From the NCBI GenBank assembly GCA_043803015.1, contig JAZDKK010000009.1, positions 5,592-69,591 of the forward strand: 64,000 nucleotides of DNA, given 5' to 3'. The first letter of the stretch is position 1. Every line of letters starts with the position of its first letter. Source of the stretch: Verrucomicrobiota bacterium (GTDB lineage: Bacteria > Verrucomicrobiota > Kiritimatiellia > CAIQIC01 > JAGNIJ01). The notes beneath the pieces are model-generated. The model ran no database searches and had not been told where the DNA came from. It was given only the letters and a program-made list of their open reading frames with translations. Positions 49,982 to 58,643 of this stretch are shown in pieces. The translations under genes and the position numbers were made by a program.

Positions 49982-51070
49982 ATGGCTGGAAAAAAGCACA
50001 TTGCCTACTACGTAAGCGCGCACGGATACGGGCATGGCGTGCGGTCGAGCGACATCGTCCGGGCGCTCCGCCGCGACCACCCCGGGATCGCGGTCACGCT
50101 CATCAGCGAGTTGCCGCAGCCCTTCCTGCGCAACCGGCTCGGTCCGGCGGCGGTGCGGCTGCGGGCCGGGGCCTTCGATGTGGGCATGGTCCAGCTGGAT
50201 TCCATTCGCGTGGACGTGCCGGCGACCCTGGCCGCGGTGCAGAAGCTCCTCGCCCGGAAGGAGCAGATCATGGAGGGCGAGACCTCTTTTTTCAGGAAGG
50301 AGGGGATCTCGCTGGTCGTGGCGGACATCCCGGCCGTTCCGCTGGAGGCGGCGCGCCGGCACGGCCTACCGGGCCTGGCCGTCGGGAACTTCGCCTGGGA
50401 CTGGATCTACGACGAGTTCGCAGTCGCGGATCCCCGCTGGGCGCCCGTGGTGCGCGAGTTCGAGCACGGCTACCGGCAGGCCGATCTTCTGCTCCGCCTG
50501 CCGTTCCACGAGCCGATGCAAGCGTTCCCGCGCAAGGAAGACATCCCCCTGGTCGCTTCGCCCGGCCGCAACCGCCGGAGTGAGCTGGCACGGCTGACCG
50601 GCGCCGCGCCCGAGCGGAAGTGGGTGCTCCTGTCGTTCACGTCGCTCGATTGGGACCTCCGGGCGGTGGACAACGTGGAGGAGCTGACGGACTACGAATT
50701 CTTCACGGTCAAGCCCCTGGAGTGGAAGCGCCGGAACATCCATCCGGTCAGCCGGGACGACATGCCGTTCTCGGACGTGCTGGCTTCGGCGGACGCGGTC
50801 ATTTCGAAACCGGGGTTCGGCCTCGTCTCGGAGTGCGTGGTCAACCGGAAGCCGCTGGTTCATGCGGATCGCACCGACTTCCGCGAGTACCCGGTGCTGC
50901 TGGAAGCGGTCAGGAAGTATCTGAGGCAGTGCCCGATCCCTGCCGAGGCGCTCTATCGGGGTGAAGTCCGCGGCGCGCTGGATGCGCTGTGGACGCAGCC
51001 GGAGCCGAAGGAAACGGTGCCGTCCGGCGGCGCGGAGATCGCCGCGCGGCGAATCGTATCGTTCCTGTAG
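49982..51070 (+). CDS. GT-B fold glycosyltransferase-like protein (similar to the N-terminal domain of L-arabinokinase)
   Basis: YYVSAHGYGHGVR, NFAWDWIY, ISKPGFGLVSEC. Confidence 0.75.
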   Translation: MAGKKHIAYYVSAHGYGHGVRSSDIVRALRRDHPGIAVTLISELPQPFLRNRLGPAAVRLRAGAFDVGMVQLDSIRVDVPATLAAVQKLLARKEQIMEGETSFFRKEGISLVVADIPAVPLEAARRHGLPGLAVGNFAWDWIYDEFAVADPRWAPVVREFEHGYRQADLLLRLPFHEPMQAFPRKEDIPLVASPGRNRRSELARLTGAAPERKWVLLSFTSLDWDLRAVDNVEELTDYEFFTVKPLEWKRRNIHPVSRDDMPFSDVLASADAVISKPGFGLVSECVVNRKPLVHADRTDFREYPVLLEAVRKYLRQCPIPAEALYRGEVRGALDALWTQPEPKETVPSGGAEIAARRIVSFL

Positions 51071-51081
51071 CGACTGATCTA

Positions 51082-51150
51082 GGTGGCGCGCGTTGCCCGC
51101 AGCGCGCGTGAAACGTGAGCGGCTTGGGGGCAAGCCGCTCCACCCTGCGG
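51082..51150 (+). repeat. REPIN, left copy
   Basis: GGTGG-CGCGCGTTGC-cc-GCAGCGCGCG-tgaaacgt-GAGCGGCTTG-gggg-CAAGCCGCTC-CACCctgcgg. Confidence 0.9.
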
Positions 51151-51166
51151 GGTTGGTGAGGTGCAG

Positions 51167-51634
51167 ATGCCAAGGGTCTATCCGGAGCGCTTGTACCACA
51201 AGACGCCGGCATGGGTCTCGGATGCGGCGATCTTCCATGTCCGTATCCGGTGCCTGTCTGGCAACCGGAGTCCCCTCATTCGGCCGGACAACGGAACATC
51301 CCTCTTGAACTCGGTTCGGGACTACGCCGTGCGCGGGATGTGGTCGTGCTATCTCTTCCTGTTGATGCCGGACCACGTGCATGCTCTGCTGGGTTTCGGC
51401 AGATCCCGCGGGATGAGCGAGGTCATCCGGAACTGGAAGCGTGCACAGGCGCGGTGTCTTGGCATCCAATGGCAGGACAACTACTTCGACCACCGGATTC
51501 GAGATGGGGCGGTGTTCACCGAGAAGTACGCCTACTTGACCCGCAATCCCGTGGTCTTGGGGCTCTGCGCCAGTCCCGAAGACTGGCCGTGGAGAACGGA
51601 GGCATTTGCACCGGAAGCAACGCCCAAGTTCTGA
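51167..51634 (+). CDS. REP-associated tyrosine transposase (RAYT, HUH Y1 family)
   Basis: LMPDHVH (HUH), WQDNYFDHRIR, YLTRNPV catalytic Tyr. Confidence 0.92.
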   Translation: MPRVYPERLYHKTPAWVSDAAIFHVRIRCLSGNRSPLIRPDNGTSLLNSVRDYAVRGMWSCYLFLLMPDHVHALLGFGRSRGMSEVIRNWKRAQARCLGIQWQDNYFDHRIRDGAVFTEKYAYLTRNPVVLGLCASPEDWPWRTEAFAPEATPKF

Positions 51635-51637
51635 AGC

Positions 51638-51706
51638 GGTGGCGCGCGTTGCCCGCAACGCGCGTGAAACGTGAGCGGCTTGGGGGCAAGCCGCTCCACC
51701 CTGCGG
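51638..51706 (+). repeat. REPIN, right copy
   Basis: 68/69 identical to 51082-51150 (A at 51658 vs G at 51102). Confidence 0.9.
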
Positions 51707-51718
51707 CGCAGCGAGGTG

Positions 51719-51946
51719 CTATTCCCCGCCGCCGACCGCGTCCATGTCCTTCTGCCGCTCGGCGTTGACCGCGCGCAGTTTGTCGCCGGCTTTCCGGCCC
51801 GCCTCCAGCGCGTTGCGCTGGGTCATGGTATCGACGATCTCGCCGGCGCTCATCGGCTGTCCCTTCGGCGGCGGCTGTTGCTGCTGCGACTGCGTCATCG
51901 GACCGCAGCCCAGGAGCAACGGAATACCAAGGGCTAGAATCTTCAT
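51719..51946 (-). CDS. Small lipoprotein
   Basis: MKILALGIPLLLG-C lipobox; GGAGGA RBS. Confidence 0.7.
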   Translation of the reverse strand: MKILALGIPLLLGCGPMTQSQQQQPPPKGQPMSAGEIVDTMTQRNALEAGRKAGDKLRAVNAERQKDMDAVGGGE

Positions 51947-51998
51947 TCTTCTTCCTCCCGTGCGCATGGTCGTACGACGCGAAACGGCTTCCATCTCC

Positions 51999-54900
51999 CT
52001 ACGGTTGGACCTTTACCCGGTAGAACCGGCTGGTGAGGCCCGCGGCTTCGCTATCCGTGAAATTCTTGGTGGCGGACAGCGCCGTGCCGAAGTAGAGGCT
52101 TTGCCAGGAACTGAAGGCCGGGGCCAGGTTGTCCGTGCGCTCCAGCCGGTAGTTGATGTTGGTCTCCGTCGGCCAGGACACCTCCGGCGTGCTGCCGTTC
52201 ACCTGGATGAACACCTGGAGCACGTCGTTGCTGTCGTTGGCGCCCGTCGCGGCCTGCAGTTCGTCGTAATTCGGCATGCCGTCCTGGTCCTTGTCCCCCC
52301 ACGTACCGTCATCGCCGGACGCGCTGTTGGGATCGAGCCCGTTCGCGGTTTCCCATGCATCGGGCAGGTTGTCGTTGTCCTTGTCCCAGCTCTTGTACGT
52401 GCTGTAGTCCGGGTACGTCACGCCCACGTCCACAAGCTTCAGGTACTGGGCCTGCCGGCCGTCGAACTGGTTGTCATGAAGCCAGATGGTGAGGCCGTCG
52501 TTGAGCAGGTTCGTGCCGGACTTGTTGCCGTCGGTCCAGACGTAGTTTGTCGGGTTCACCGACATGAGGTCCCAGAGGTTGTACCAGCGGCCGGCCTCGA
52601 TGCCGAACCAGTTCTTGCCGTTGGTGTAGTTGGTGTTGACGATGAACGTGTCGATCCGGTTCGTCGTGCCGCCCTCGGACGACTGGTAGTTGTTGTTGAC
52701 GGCGACGAACACGACGTCCTGCGAAGCGGCGCTGACGCCCGGCTGCTCGAACTTGGCCACGACGAACATGTCAGGGTTCCAGTTCGACGACGAGACGTTG
52801 CCCAGCATGTAGTTGTTCTGGCTCCGCAGGGCAGGGGAGTGCTGCCGCGCCCAGTTGATCCTCCGGTAGGTGTTGTACATCGGCGGCTTCCAAGGCCCGT
52901 TGGTCGCGCCGTCCCAGATGTTGGTCAGGTTGTTGTACCGCTTGAAATTCGGGATCGCCTTCCCGAAATTCGTCTCGTACCGCGCGAAGTTGTTCAGCGG
53001 GTTGATGGCGTGGCTGCCATAGGCCCCCGCGTCGTTCTGGGCGCCGGCCTCCTGGCCGTAGAACAGCATCGGAGCTCCGTCCATCGCGTTGACGGTCGCA
53101 TAGGCGTAGATCACGCGCCACTGGTCGTCGTTCGGGTACAGCTCGTCGTGCGACGTCAGGTTCAGCAGGATGGGGGCCGCGTCGTACGCGTTGCGCCGGT
53201 TGTCCCAAGCCTGCCAGGTCGGGTACGTCTTCGCGTTGTCGTTCGTGAACGTGCTGCCGTTCCAGCTGTAGTAGTTGAAGAAGTTGTCGCGCCAGTAGAA
53301 GACCATGTTCTCGTTCAGGACGTCGAAATGCCGCGCGGAGCGGTAGCTCAGTCCGTGCCGCTTGCTGCCGCCGACCTCGCGGTAGCCGTCCAGCGACTCG
53401 GCCATGAAGATGAAATCCCACTTCACGCTGCGGGTCTTGTTGATCGTGTACTCCCAGAACAGCGACGGCAGGCCCTGGGCGAAGTCGCAGCGCAGGCCGT
53501 CGATGCCCTTGAACGACTCCGCCTTCGGCGTGTCCTGCGGGTGGCCGGTTTTCTCCAGCCAGTAGATCGGGTAGTAGGAGAAGTACTGCCACAGCTCCCG
53601 CGTGGCGTTCGTCGCGAAGCCGTCGAACACGTCCTGCTCGTGGAGATACTGGTCCCGCCAGTCGTCCGCCTGTCCCTGCACGAGGGCGTCGTAGGTGCCG
53701 AAGAAGAAATCGGCCACGTCGCTCCATTTGCCGAAATCGATCCGGTCGGGCGCCACGCCCATGTCGGTATCGCTGGAGGTGCGGTAATACGTCGCGTGGG
53801 TGCCGTAGTTGCCCGCCCTGGAGTACCACTGCGGCCGGACATCCCGGATGAGGTTGCCGGCGTTCGTGGCCCACGGGAACATCTGGACGCCCACCTCGCC
53901 GATCTCGCAGTCCCAGGCGCTGTGGTTGAACGTGCCGTCCAGCATAACGCCCACGCCGGCGCCATCCATGCTCTGCACGAAGTTGGTGAACTCCGCCAGG
54001 GCTTCGCTGCCGTCGGCGGTCCACGGGTCGCCCAGGACGCCGCTGACCGTCCAGTAGTTGCGGACGGCGTAGGGACTGCCGGGGTCGTAGTCCCGCAGCG
54101 TCTCGGGGTCGGTCTGTTTGTTATCACTGCCGATCGGATGGATCGGCTGCAGCCAGACCATGTTGACGCCCAGCTGGCCGTACGAGTTCGTGTTGAACAC
54201 GTCCGGCCGGTTCGTGTTGGCCGTGTAGAGGTCACGGAATGTGCTGCGCCCGTAGAAGTCCACGGACGTGGCCTCGGCCGTCATCGGGTTCATCTCGTAC
54301 AGGACCAGGTCCAGCGCCTTCTTCGGCGACGCGACCACCGCGCAGTCGCGGCGCAGGCCGCCGTCGCTGTAGTAGACGTACGCCCCGTGGTTGACCTTGT
54401 ACCGGGCGTTGATGCGGTACGCGCCGCACTTGTTGGCGTTGATCGTGAAGGTGTAGGGACCGCTGCCGCTGCCGCTCATCGGGTACGCGCGGTAGTAGGT
54501 CGTCTCGCTGGTGGTCGTGACGTCGTCCGGGTTCTGGTCGCCCGGCAGGACCGCGAAGTCGCGCCGGTTGAGGTTGGAGAACAGCTCGACGTCGGACAGG
54601 ACGTTGGTGCCGCCCGGGCCGTTGAGGTTGAGGATCACCGTGATGTCCTGCGAATCGCCGGCCCGCTCGTTCAGGAACATGCGGCGCAGCCCGTAGTTGG
54701 CGTCGTTCGTGTTGCCGTTGACGACGGTCCACATCTGTGGCTTGCCGATGTCGAAGGTGCCGTTGAGGTCCTCGTCGCGGATGCTCGCGACGGGCACCGG
54801 CTGAAACTCGGTCGTCTCCAGGTCGTTGGCGTTGTTGCCGTAGGACGGCGGGCACTGGCTGTCGAGGCCGCCGCCGTCGTTGTCGCCCATGGCCACTGCG

Positions 54901-57900
54901 GCGATGTACAGCACGCTCGGGACCTCGCCGAAGACCTCGGTGAGGTTCAGCTCGCCCTCCAGCGCGTTGCCGGACGTGCCCATGGCGACGCGGCCGCCGG
55001 TGCCGCTGTTGTTGAACGCGCAGAAACCGCCGCTGATCTTCGATTCCGCCACCAGGTGGGGCATCGCGGCCTTGTCGAAGAACACCTGGCCCGACTTGGC
55101 CCACGGCGAGGGCTCGGGCGCGGAGAACGCGCTGCACACGTAGAGGAAGTGATCGTCGGTCGTTTCGCTGCCGTTGGCGGACCACGTGGCCACGTACAGG
55201 GTGCTGCCCTTCACCGCGGCCAGGATCTTCATGCCGGAGTTGGCCACCTCGTAGTTCGCGTTGTCGAAGTTGCCGTCCATGTTGAAGTAGTTCGTGATCA
55301 CCACGCAGGCGCCGACGGTCACGGCCCAATCCGCGCCGCCGTTGTTGTCCCAGATCGTGCCCGCCGTGTTCCGGAACACGAAGTTGACGTTGGTGGCGTC
55401 GGTCGGGATCGCGTAGATGTACTGCCACGACCCGCCGCCGATGTCCGTCATCGCGTTGGTCGTGGCGTTCGACCAGTTGCTGTAGCCGATGTAGATCTGG
55501 ATCGGGGACTCGTTGCTCAGCGGGCCCTGGTTCCGCGCGTACGTGATCGTCAGCGTGTTGCCGGCGCACCGGGTCGGGCTGGTCGGCGTCCAGCTGGCGC
55601 TCGACGGGATGATGGACCCGCCGTTGGTCTCGACGCAGGTGCCGGGTTTGCTGCCGCCGTCGTAGAGGTTGTAGTAGTACGCGTTCGTGAACTGCAGGTA
55701 GCCCTGGCGGACCTCGCAGCTGTTCGGCACGCCGTCGCCGCTGTTGATGTTGTAGTCGCTGTCCTCGTCGCCGTCCCACAGGCCGTCGTAGTCGCTGTCG
55801 GCGTTCATCGGGTTCAGGCGCGTCCACGTCTCGCCGTAGTTCGGGATCATGTCCTGGTTGCCCGATCCCGAGTTGTCGCCCGGCCACGGGACGTTCGGGC
55901 CCGGCGAGGTGCCGTTGCTGAAGTTCGGCATCTCGACGTTGTCCGGCAGGCCGTCGCCGTCGGAGTCGACCTGGTTGCTGCCGTACAGGTTGAACGTGAC
56001 CTGCGTGGAGGCTCGGTTGGTCAGGATGCCGCTGACGGCGACGGCCTCGAAGAAGTGCGCGCCGTTGACGAACGCGCCGTACAGGCGGCCCGTGACGTTG
56101 CCCAGGACGTACCGCCCGTCGAACACGTTGGTCAGGCTGCCCGTGCCGTTCTGGAGCACGAGCGGGAGGCCGTCCCAGAGGAGGGTGACCTGGTTCTGGC
56201 TGAGGCCGGCCGCCGTGACGATGGTGCGGAAAAACGGCAGCTCGATCTGCGCGCCAGCGCCGCGGTTGATGCTCTGGAAGCCGATCGACACCGACGGGCC
56301 CGCCGTGTCCACGGAGAAGGTCCGCGTCAGGTACGACGTGTTGATGATGCTGCGCGAGGCGCCCCAGTCCGCCTCCAGCGCGCGAACAACCATCGTGTGG
56401 TTGCCGCTGCTCAGGGCGGACAGGTTGTAGCGCCAGGATCCCTCCATCATCTTCGTCGCCGACAGGTAGCCGCCGCCGTCGAGCTGGACGTCGATCGAGT
56501 ACGCCGTCCGGTCGCTGTTGCTGATCACGGCCACGAGGTCGCCGTCCACGGTCTGCGCCTCGGCCGGCGTTGTCGCGTTCAGGGCCGGGCCGTGACGGTC
56601 CACGTACACGGCCTCGCTGAAGGTCTGGAAGAGCGCCGGGTACCCGGACCGCGCGTTGAAGCAGCGCCCCTTCACCAGGTGGAGGCCTTCCGCCACGTTG
56701 GTGAGCGTCGCGGTGAGGCGCCAGTACGACGCGTTGGAGACGGCGTTCTGGTAGCCGTAGCTTACGAGCGAGGTGTCGTTCGTGAGGTAGGGCTGGCTGT
56801 CGCTGACGCGAAGGCCGTTGCCCCATTTCACGATGACGCTGTCCACGCCGGCGTCCGCCGGCGGGTTGAAGTACACATCGATATCCACAACGTCGTTCGT
56901 GATGCGGGTGACGGTGCGCGGCTTGTTGGTGGCGAGCGCGCCGCCCGGCACGACCCAGTTCATGGTCGGGCAGGACGCGCCGCTCTGCGAGAAGCGCAGG
57001 GGGTCGCCGTTCGCGCTCGCGTTCCGCGGCGCGAAGCACACCCAGCCCTGGCCGTTCATCCCCGCGGGGATGGGCAGGTTGACCTTCGGCACGCCGCCGC
57101 CGCCGTCGTACACGGTGATGTTGCCGCTGTCCGTGGTGTAGTTGCCGGTGTAGTCGTGGAGGACGGTGCCGATGGCGAACGCCGTCAACACGCCGTTGGC
57201 GGTCCGCGAGCCGCCGGAATCGTTGAGGCCGACCAGCAGGAGGCCCTCGTTGGTGTTGGGGGTCGAGCTAATGTTAAGGTCGTCGTAGCGCTCGTAGATG
57301 TAGATGTCGCCCTCGCTCCAGCGCTCCCACTCGCGCCCGCGCGCGAACTGGTTGTGGATGTAGACGAGGTTGGGGAGGGCGTTGTTGTTGTAGTCGCCCA
57401 GCGCGCCGCCGTGGCCGATCTTCAGCCAGGTCTTCACGTTGACGTCGCTGCCGTTGAGGTTGTTGCCGGTGAAGTAGACGACCGGCAGGCCGATGTGCGT
57501 GAGGATGTAGACGTAGGCCAGCTCGAGCTTGGACGGCGGGCTCTCGTCGTGGCTCTGGCAGAACAGCACACCCTCCTCTTCCGAGAAGCCCGAACCGCTG
57601 AGGGCCGCGAGGTTGCCGCTGTTGAAGGCGGGGAAGATCATCGAGCTCTTGCGCGGGAAGTCGAGATAGCGGAATTTCACGCCGTACGAAGTCCGCCAGT
57701 AGCTCACCTGGTCCACGCCGCCGATGAAGAACTCGGAGAAGATCAGCGCGTTCTTGCGATGGACGTAGTTCTTGTAGAGGTCCGCATACTCATCCGGCGT
57801 CGAGTAGCCGCGGCGGTTCTGAAAGTTCCACTGGATCTGGTGGTTGAAGCCGTTGCCCGGCGTGCCGAAGAAATCCGCGATCACGTGCTTCGGCGCGTCG

Positions 57901-58643
57901 AGCCGCACGCCGTCCCAATCCATCGCGTAGCCGAGCCAGTTGATCCAGCGGTGGATGAAATCGATGGTGTTCTCGCTGGTGTCCACCCCGAACGGATAGC
58001 GTTCGTCCCATCCCGGCTGCCGGTAGTAATTGGGCGGGGAAGAGAAATTCGAGTAGCCCGAGTTGAAGCGGCCATCGGACTCCAGCTGGAGGTCGATCAG
58101 GCTGACCAGCTCCTGCTGGAAGGTGTAGCCATAGCCGTTGTTGATGTCGTCGTAGGCGGTCATGCGCGGCGTACGCTTGAAGCCGCCGGGCTGGCCGCCG
58201 TCCCACCAGCCGTGGAAGTCGTTGGGCTGGGTGCCGGGGTAGGTGCGGTAGTCCGGCCCGTTGCCGAAGTGGTTCATCACGATGTCGGGGTAGATCTTGA
58301 TGTCGCACTGGTGCGCGTTGTCGACCATGTTGCGGAGGGAGCCGCGGGTGCCGTAGCGGGTGCCGAGCGAGCCGCGCTGGGGGACGTCGCCGATGTCGAA
58401 CTTGTCGTAGTGGCTGTACCCGACGTTGCCGCCGCCGGCGAACTGGCCGCCCGCGTTGGGCGACTTGGTGGGCGGTGGGACCCAGAGTCCTTCGTAACCC
58501 TCTTCGGCCATCTCGGGCAGGCGGCGGTAGATCTCGTCCCACTCGGTCTCAAACCACTGGATGAGCACTTCGGATCGCGAGGAGAGGGGCAGGAGGAGCA
58601 GGCACGCCCAGGCGAGGACGAGGGAAAGTTTCAGAAACCTCAT
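51999..58643 (-). CDS. Giant secreted alpha-amylase-family protein with two GH13 catalytic domains and a starch-binding-like module
   Basis: Signal peptide; domain 1 DIVMNH/GVRLDAPKH/SEFF/SHDE; domain 2 DGTFNH/GLRCDFAQG/MAESL/SHDE; WDNNGGADW; DxDxDG repeats; C-terminal RFYRV. Confidence 0.9.
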   Translation of the reverse strand: MRFLKLSLVLAWACLLLLPLSSRSEVLIQWFETEWDEIYRRLPEMAEEGYEGLWVPPPTKSPNAGGQFAGGGNVGYSHYDKFDIGDVPQRGSLGTRYGTRGSLRNMVDNAHQCDIKIYPDIVMNHFGNGPDYRTYPGTQPNDFHGWWDGGQPGGFKRTPRMTAYDDINNGYGYTFQQELVSLIDLQLESDGRFNSGYSNFSSPPNYYRQPGWDERYPFGVDTSENTIDFIHRWINWLGYAMDWDGVRLDAPKHVIADFFGTPGNGFNHQIQWNFQNRRGYSTPDEYADLYKNYVHRKNALIFSEFFIGGVDQVSYWRTSYGVKFRYLDFPRKSSMIFPAFNSGNLAALSGSGFSEEEGVLFCQSHDESPPSKLELAYVYILTHIGLPVVYFTGNNLNGSDVNVKTWLKIGHGGALGDYNNNALPNLVYIHNQFARGREWERWSEGDIYIYERYDDLNISSTPNTNEGLLLVGLNDSGGSRTANGVLTAFAIGTVLHDYTGNYTTDSGNITVYDGGGGVPKVNLPIPAGMNGQGWVCFAPRNASANGDPLRFSQSGASCPTMNWVVPGGALATNKPRTVTRITNDVVDIDVYFNPPADAGVDSVIVKWGNGLRVSDSQPYLTNDTSLVSYGYQNAVSNASYWRLTATLTNVAEGLHLVKGRCFNARSGYPALFQTFSEAVYVDRHGPALNATTPAEAQTVDGDLVAVISNSDRTAYSIDVQLDGGGYLSATKMMEGSWRYNLSALSSGNHTMVVRALEADWGASRSIINTSYLTRTFSVDTAGPSVSIGFQSINRGAGAQIELPFFRTIVTAAGLSQNQVTLLWDGLPLVLQNGTGSLTNVFDGRYVLGNVTGRLYGAFVNGAHFFEAVAVSGILTNRASTQVTFNLYGSNQVDSDGDGLPDNVEMPNFSNGTSPGPNVPWPGDNSGSGNQDMIPNYGETWTRLNPMNADSDYDGLWDGDEDSDYNINSGDGVPNSCEVRQGYLQFTNAYYYNLYDGGSKPGTCVETNGGSIIPSSASWTPTSPTRCAGNTLTITYARNQGPLSNESPIQIYIGYSNWSNATTNAMTDIGGGSWQYIYAIPTDATNVNFVFRNTAGTIWDNNGGADWAVTVGACVVITNYFNMDGNFDNANYEVANSGMKILAAVKGSTLYVATWSANGSETTDDHFLYVCSAFSAPEPSPWAKSGQVFFDKAAMPHLVAESKISGGFCAFNNSGTGGRVAMGTSGNALEGELNLTEVFGEVPSVLYIAAVAMGDNDGGGLDSQCPPSYGNNANDLETTEFQPVPVASIRDEDLNGTFDIGKPQMWTVVNGNTNDANYGLRRMFLNERAGDSQDITVILNLNGPGGTNVLSDVELFSNLNRRDFAVLPGDQNPDDVTTTSETTYYRAYPMSGSGSGPYTFTINANKCGAYRINARYKVNHGAYVYYSDGGLRRDCAVVASPKKALDLVLYEMNPMTAEATSVDFYGRSTFRDLYTANTNRPDVFNTNSYGQLGVNMVWLQPIHPIGSDNKQTDPETLRDYDPGSPYAVRNYWTVSGVLGDPWTADGSEALAEFTNFVQSMDGAGVGVMLDGTFNHSAWDCEIGEVGVQMFPWATNAGNLIRDVRPQWYSRAGNYGTHATYYRTSSDTDMGVAPDRIDFGKWSDVADFFFGTYDALVQGQADDWRDQYLHEQDVFDGFATNATRELWQYFSYYPIYWLEKTGHPQDTPKAESFKGIDGLRCDFAQGLPSLFWEYTINKTRSVKWDFIFMAESLDGYREVGGSKRHGLSYRSARHFDVLNENMVFYWRDNFFNYYSWNGSTFTNDNAKTYPTWQAWDNRRNAYDAAPILLNLTSHDELYPNDDQWRVIYAYATVNAMDGAPMLFYGQEAGAQNDAGAYGSHAINPLNNFARYETNFGKAIPNFKRYNNLTNIWDGATNGPWKPPMYNTYRRINWARQHSPALRSQNNYMLGNVSSSNWNPDMFVVAKFEQPGVSAASQDVVFVAVNNNYQSSEGGTTNRIDTFIVNTNYTNGKNWFGIEAGRWYNLWDLMSVNPTNYVWTDGNKSGTNLLNDGLTIWLHDNQFDGRQAQYLKLVDVGVTYPDYSTYKSWDKDNDNLPDAWETANGLDPNSASGDDGTWGDKDQDGMPNYDELQAATGANDSNDVLQVFIQVNGSTPEVSWPTETNINYRLERTDNLAPAFSSWQSLYFGTALSATKNFTDSEAAGLTSRFYRVKVQP

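Follow-up and report, generated by a model that had tools for sequence, protein, structure and literature searches.

A probable REPtron in a Verrucomicrobiota MAG: a single-copy RAYT gene between two near-identical, GTGG-headed REP doublets

The closest described system is the REPtron, a name used by Ton-Hoang et al. (2012, PMC3333891) for a gene together with its flanking REP structure, which according to the account given there appears not to transpose as a unit. The same account describes E. coli strains from which tnpA_REP has been precisely excised, and others in which both it and its BIMEs have been replaced. Quentin et al. (2018, PMC6006769) give GT[AG]G as the consensus of the REP head and describe a patchy distribution, and one REP group has perfect palindromes according to Corneloup et al. 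(2021, PMC8266576), who state in their text that “there is no evidence of tnpAREP mobility”. RAYTs usually have several REPINs at their flanks according to PMC3337134, and the statements on this point in bioRxiv 10.1101/2021.07.10.451892 and PMC8266576 treat them as non-jumping, single-copy genes. A first, sequence-only reading of the DNA described here had likewise stated that RAYTs are usually regarded as domesticated and rarely mobile, in agreement with these sources.

The window, i.e., the whole stretch of 64,000 nucleotides that was analysed, belongs to a Verrucomicrobiota MAG (G000) of 2.15 Mb in 84 contigs, which is 66% complete. It contains a 625-bp unit (51082-51706; Table 1) in which a short gene lies between two repeats, with 556 nt from the start of one repeat to the start of the other. 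We consider this unit to be a REPtron, with a probability of roughly 0.85: a single-copy RAYT bordered on both sides by cognate REPs, which are arranged as head-outward GTGG doublets. The ORF begins with an ATG at 51167 and ends with the stop codon at 51632-51634, although an in-frame GTG at 51161 would give a protein of 157 aa. A gap of 16 nt separates the left repeat from the ATG, and the right repeat begins 3 nt past the stop codon, so that the coordinates agree with the sequence-only reading, which had described a HUH/Y1 gene of ~155 aa between 69-bp repeats.

Table 1. Positions of the REP doublets, the RAYT gene and neighbouring genes in the window, and of further RAYT-like genes in the MAG (G000)
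Feature	Position	Strand	Basis or remark
Glycosyltransferase gene	49994..51070	+	Pfam Glyco_trans_1_3; single copy, conserved across the order
Left REP doublet, 69 nt	51082..51150	+	Direct repeat, REP scan; DNA fold -24.5 kcal/mol
REP a of left doublet (hairpin 1)	51082..51109	GTGG head on +	Stem carries T.G wobble
REP b of left doublet (hairpin 2)	51117..51144	GTGG head on -	Perfect stem, 9-10 pairs
Ribosome-binding-like stretch GAGGTG	51158..51163	+	Read from sequence; putative role
RAYT / TnpA_REP gene, 155 aa	51167..51634	+	Pfam Y1_Tnp, NCBIfam, invariant HUH + Tyr, best match 4ER8
Right REP doublet, 69 nt	51638..51706	+	68/69 identical to left, same orientation; DNA fold -25.8 kcal/mol
Right doublet, hairpin 1	51638-51665	head on +	
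Right doublet, hairpin 2	51673-51700	head on -	
Small lipoprotein-like gene	51719..51994	-	Convergent with glycosyltransferase gene
Further RAYT-like gene	G000:C55:9875-10231		
Further RAYT-like gene	G000:C12:45779-46189		
Further RAYT-like gene	G000:C6:1731-2084	-	
Further RAYT-like gene	G000:C62:61036-61467	-	

Judged by its sequence and its modelled fold, the gene is a RAYT/TnpA_REP of the HUH/Y1 family and a predicted single-strand DNA nuclease. Pfam Y1_Tnp matches the protein above its cutoff (E 1.3e-5, 25.8 bits vs a cutoff of 23), and the NCBIfam model for the REP-associated tyrosine transposase (REP_Tyr_transpos, NF047646) matches it with E 7.8e-18 and 64.8 bits. The latter score is under the curated cutoff of 80, and we therefore regard the protein as a divergent RAYT. 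Both the HUH motif (MPDHVH) and the catalytic Tyr (YAYLTRNP) are intact, and H70, H72, Y123 (of Y..NP) and the WQ..F.HR.R block do not vary in an alignment of the window RAYT with ten relatives. The top PDB match by sequence is 4ER8, the E. coli TnpA_REP (E 3e-4), which is also the top fold match of the AlphaFold model (pLDDT 87; TM 0.70/0.66), followed by the ISDra2, IS608 and IS200 transposases. Database homologues of the protein bear the JGI name “REP element-mobilizing transposase RayT”. The base composition of the gene (GC 0.609, GC3 0.776) is low for the genome (GC 0.657), but it is no mark of recent import, since all five RAYT paralogs of the MAG are similarly low.

The two flanking repeats are each built in the same order, with GGTGG and hairpin 1 followed by an 8-nt spacer, hairpin 2 with CCACC, and a CTGCGG tail. 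Their only difference is in the 3' arm of hairpin 1, which has a G in the left repeat and an A in the right one, so that a T-A pair becomes T.G on the GGTGG-bearing strand. Both hairpins in a doublet are GTGG-tipped and inverted with respect to each other, but their stems differ (CGCGCGTTGC and GAGCGGCTTG), and for this reason the doublet is predicted to fold as two hairpins rather than one; with DNA parameters, these two hairpins are closed by GGTGG/CCACC pairing, and no single long REPIN hairpin is formed. Neither flank is a strict REPIN, whose REPs are mutual reverse complements that form one long hairpin, and by its predicted fold the flanking doublet is closer to a BIME. Most of the sequence-only description of the repeats is thus retained: the REP scan and the distinct stems confirm two different, inverted, GTGG-tipped hairpins, and the hairpin with the wobble still folds, as had been proposed. 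Its view of a RAYT bracketed by REPINs holds insofar as the RAYT lies between its own REP doublets, but not in the use of the term REPIN for two separate hairpins. Both repeats are followed by a weak similarity (GAGGTGC, shifted by one base), which was rejected as an extension of the repeat because it is too short.

Within the window, the two flanks are the only matches to the 69-mer at up to 3 mismatches (none of 100 shuffles had a match), and even with as many as 6 mismatches allowed, no further copy is present in the 2.15 Mb of the 66%-complete MAG. The REP family to which the hairpins belong is nevertheless spread over the genome. A search for GGTGG followed by a 9-bp stem and a CCCNC-like loop gives 27 REPs in the MAG vs two in the reversed genome that served as control. 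Twenty-four of the 27 are arranged in 12 doublets, 11 of which are head-outward, and the other three are singlets. REP stems vary in sequence, yet they stay paired through compensatory changes (e.g., ATCGCGTTG/CAACGCGAT vs GCGCGCCTTG/CAAGGCGCGC), and the 28-mer of REP b has an identical copy at G000:C24:10303-10330. By a crude check of open frames, 10 of 15 REP units do not overlap gene-like frames and are for the most part 3-90 nt away from the end of a gene, and some singlets are inside long open frames. The doublets next most similar to the flanks are 73-78% like them. Nothing points to a recent spread of REPs in this genome: the stems are diverse, and no near-identical doublets are present besides the flanks.

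The window RAYT has one copy in the 66%-complete MAG, and “single copy”, like “no solo copy” of the doublet, holds for the assembled part. A tblastn search of the MAG yields four further RAYT-like genes (Table 1), which are at most 39% identical to the window RAYT. Three of these paralogs (C12, C55 and C6) have GTAG/CTAC-tipped hairpins of their own on both sides, in direct orientation. These belong to REP families of ~17-69 copies (~53-69 for the C55 type, ~17-20 for the C12 type), and since each of the three has its own flanking family, the MAG carries at least four separate REPtron systems. The GTGG kind of the window RAYT and the GTAG kind of the C12 paralog thus coexist in this one MAG. 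In the assembled part of the MAG there are no several near-identical copies of a RAYT at different sites, as in an IS-like element; instead there is a single gene copy per REP type, and five large genomes have the same pattern, with RAYT paralogs at most 57% identical to each other. Outside the genome, the protein cluster of the window RAYT has one member, the next best among 5.8 billion proteins is 64% identical, and a search of plasmids and phages found no close relative.

The nearest orthologues, which are from other families of the same order, are 55% (G010) and 53% (G011) identical, and each is bracketed by GGTGG doublets. Over 169 nt the two flanks of G010 share 98.8% identity, and their units have at least 58 matches in that genome, with 80-100% identity and most of them at least 95%. 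We attribute the flank identity in G010 to a young, homogeneous REP population, and the size and homogeneity of this population suggest that the enzyme clade is active elsewhere. A survey of species-representative genomes provided 80 loci, mostly from Verrucomicrobiota, which with the window, G010 and G011 make 83; nine loci with flanks shorter than 200 nt were excluded, and the 74 evaluable loci were compared with mismatched locus pairs. A direct repeat between the upstream and downstream flanks (at least 30 bits) is found in 50 of the 74 loci vs 4 of 74 mismatched controls, and an inverted repeat in 35 of 74 vs 2 of 74. At 40 bits or more, 48 of the 74 loci have a direct repeat, and nearly all of these have GGTGG/CCACC or GGTAG/CTACC heads. 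In this genome and clade, a bracket of direct repeats is the normal arrangement. The sequence-only reading had taken it, in its LTR-like form, as a possible mark of a recent jump, a view that does not survive the three paralogs and the 50 of 74 loci with the same layout, for which the name REPtron already exists.

Some loci of the survey go beyond a simple bracket. Among the 57 loci with a direct match, 15 have an upstream repeat that includes at least 15 nt of the RAYT 3' end, although some of the matches are short; in the window, the repeat ends 3 nt short of the ORF and does not contain the gene's 3' end. Locus L058 (419-1773) has a 740-nt tandem duplication of the whole REP-RAYT unit, with copies that are 93% identical, the upstream RAYT being truncated (124 aa) and the downstream one complete (167 aa). 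The repeated gene 3' ends and the L058 tandem indicate that units do duplicate head to tail elsewhere.

The type of REP head follows the relationships of the enzymes. Outside a clade of 52 rows, in the subclade of the window, 31 of 41 loci have GTGG heads (with one GTAG, one tie and eight with none), and inside the clade 23 of 38 have GTAG heads (with one GTGG, one tie and 13 with none). The loci are kin, and the split is therefore a pattern rather than a test. A quick tree (146 columns, many open forks) groups the window RAYT with that of G010, apart from all RAYTs of the same family, and this placement fits the published patchy distribution. RAYTs of the clade are also present in MAGs labelled Acidobacteriota, Binatota and Lentisphaerota (L063, L073, L121, L103), where they could be due to horizontal transfer or to binning error.

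By analogy with E. coli TnpA_REP, the window enzyme would bind folded single-stranded REP hairpins, recognizing the stem-loop and the 5' GT[AG]G tetranucleotide. Its tyrosine would then cut the strand with the assistance of a metal bound by the HUH motif, and the strands would be rejoined. On the same analogy, it would act in trans on the ~27 REPs of its family that are scattered in the genome. The two flanking doublets would be the remains of the ends of an IS200-like element. The doublets probably also shape expression, with read-through from the glycosyltransferase gene passing via the hairpins; a sigma-70 scan of the stretch from the glycosyltransferase stop codon to the start of the RAYT yielded no promoter, a weak result given that this phylum may use other promoter types. 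Given the diverse REP population of the MAG, the 68/69 identity of the flanks calls for a local cause. It may have arisen from local duplication, unequal exchange or gene conversion between the repeats 556 nt apart, rather than from any proven jump.

The unit is located between two convergent genes, the second of which has an LLLGC box that we take to be a lipoprotein mark. Of 41 genomes searched, 32 have a single copy of the glycosyltransferase gene, and in five of the eight genomes of the same family in which this gene is present the lipoprotein gene is convergent next to it, with a gap of 15-145 nt and no RAYT. No RAYT is found within 1.5 kb in any of 15 foreign loci. At the same intergenic spot in another genome of the family (G009, L030:2540-2730) there is a different palindromic block that is strongly structured, with an RNA-parameter fold of -103 kcal/mol over 191 nt, and in several lineages repeats seem to accumulate in the gap between the convergent genes. 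On its other side the lipoprotein gene adjoins a gene (51999-58643, minus strand) for a protein of 2214 aa, which has an alpha-amylase-like domain at its N terminus as well as a short CglD-like segment.

An allele without the unit is known from one contig of one sequencing run, X1, a groundwater metagenome (Logan contigs). This contig of 1786 nt is ~95-96% identical to the window on both sides, with 26 differences over 50400-51070 and 35 differences plus 6 gap letters over 51720-52400. It skips 51071-51719 (649 nt) and has 44 other letters instead, which are too few to hold a solo 69-nt doublet. The sequence-only reading had suggested a search for an empty or solo-REPIN allele, and of these an empty one exists, with no room for a solo doublet; the solo copies of the 69-mer for which it had also suggested a search are absent from the 2.15 Mb of the MAG. 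A unit that is present in the MAG and absent from the same site in such a close relative has been gained or lost as a block, in either direction and, by these sequences, apparently within a divergence of about species level; loss or allelic replacement would account for the empty allele equally well. A second X1 contig has exact copies of both REPs elsewhere, with their heads inward, which indicates that the REP family predates the split. Fifteen of the listed X1 differences are in the last 155 nt of the glycosyltransferase gene vs one in the preceding 440 nt, with up to five more beyond those listed. They cluster at 50916-51039 of the window, next to the indel, as compared with 50475-50915. 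This cluster may fit homologous recombination of the whole region, in which case it would represent a recombination boundary, or a less constrained gene end. In the search of sequencing runs, one run had a 0.17 share of words and two runs of the same study had next to none; the RAYT ORF has no cover in the X1-X3 contigs, which is no evidence that the gene is absent there. When more alleles of the site were sought in metagenomes with the glycosyltransferase protein, the matches listed included one distant locus (54%).

A different reading of the same locus is that the REPtron still moves and has recently arrived here as a self-mobile element of 556 nt, consisting of the RAYT and one doublet. 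The RAYT would cut equivalent sites in the direct doublets, release a single-stranded circle and re-insert it, the X1 site would be the pre-insertion state, and the tandem and partial-tandem units in other Verrucomicrobiota would be traces of the process. We think this rather unlikely. An empty allele in a relative of ~95-96% identity speaks for such movement, but what occupies the site is 44 letters and not a 69-nt solo doublet, and according to PMC3333891 E. coli has the same kind of polymorphism via loss. A difference of 1 in 69 between the flanks, when no other doublet of the genome resembles them by more than 78%, would suit a recent event; insertion at the edge of a resident doublet, however, would make the flanks as unlike as any two doublets of the genome, and the MAG offers no other copy of the 69-mer as target or footprint. 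The circle that the sequence-only reading had envisaged, integrating into a resident REPIN, thus lacks both a near-identical resident doublet (at up to 6 mismatches in 2.15 Mb) and a second RAYT copy. Arrival from elsewhere is favoured by the nearest orthologue (55%), which is at another locus in another family, and by the five of eight same-family genomes that have the site without a RAYT, but a mobile element would hardly be represented by one copy, by no protein above 64% identity in the protein collection, and by diverged paralogs only in the five large genomes. Head-to-tail duplication of units does occur elsewhere (in 15 of 57 loci, and as the 740-nt L058 tandem), and as the bracket is generic, it dates no event. 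Mobility of the unit, if true, would run counter to the position taken in print, according to which evidence for tnpA_REP mobility is lacking.

The unit might alternatively be a relic, with the RAYT and its REPs declining and no longer active, and with the strain that is without it having lost it. This is quite unlikely in our view. The REP population would fit such a reading, as it numbers only 27, its stems are diverse and it has no identical doublets besides the flanks, and so would the exact copies of both REPs that the X1 relative keeps elsewhere, which make the family older than the split; the account in PMC3333891 provides a precedent for loss in E. coli. Set against this, the ORF is intact and keeps every invariant residue of the clade, the stems keep pairing by compensatory changes, and the REPs that go with the sister enzyme in G010 form a population that is large and homogeneous. 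Finally, an assembler sent once round a loop through the RAYT by the 69-nt repeat is conceivable in a MAG fragmented into 84 contigs, but it is highly improbable, as the copies differ at one base and were resolved as distinct, and as 50 of 74 independent assemblies, which include chromosome-scale records, have the same architecture.

The window unit, read as a REPtron, adds little alone, being a clean and compact example from a phylum in which such systems are little studied. Of more use for work on RAYTs is the rule of the direct-repeat bracket in this clade (50 of 74 loci), which at times includes the gene 3' end or a whole second unit. The GTGG and GTAG heads, each of which goes with one of two RAYT subclades (in 31 of 41 and in 23 of 38 loci), make a natural specificity pair, and the presence/absence at ~95-96% identity is a concrete place to ask if a REPtron is gained as well as lost.

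Compared with the IS200/IS605 elements (IS608, ISDra2), the unit shares the Y1 HUH fold and the subterminal hairpins, which at either end are on one and the same strand, and no target duplication is seen. It differs in being without multiple near-identical copies and without tnpB, and in its ends, which are a repeat family of the whole genome and not left and right ends specific to the element. With the REPIN-RAYT system, as presented by Bertels and Rainey (2011, PMC3116915) and in PMC3337134, it shares inverted REP doublets that are mostly extragenic and a cognate RAYT flanked by them. Here, though, the stems are unlike and form no single long hairpin, which is more like a y/z BIME, and the population is small (27 REPs).

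The closest likeness is to the REPtron of the E. coli yafM locus, to the extent that it is described in PMC3333891 and PMC8266576. The window unit differs from it in having a GTGG rather than a GTAG head, in its host (a Verrucomicrobiota MAG), in having one near-identical doublet per flank, and in its score under the NCBIfam cutoff, while its perfect hairpins are of the type of the second REP group of the 2021 paper (PMC8266576). The features in common are a short HUH/Y1 gene between GT[AG]G-headed palindromes of a genome-dispersed family, a single copy per REP type, presence/absence at the strain level, and 4ER8 as the top structural match. Since the REPtron has already been described in print, the window unit would be one more of a known kind.
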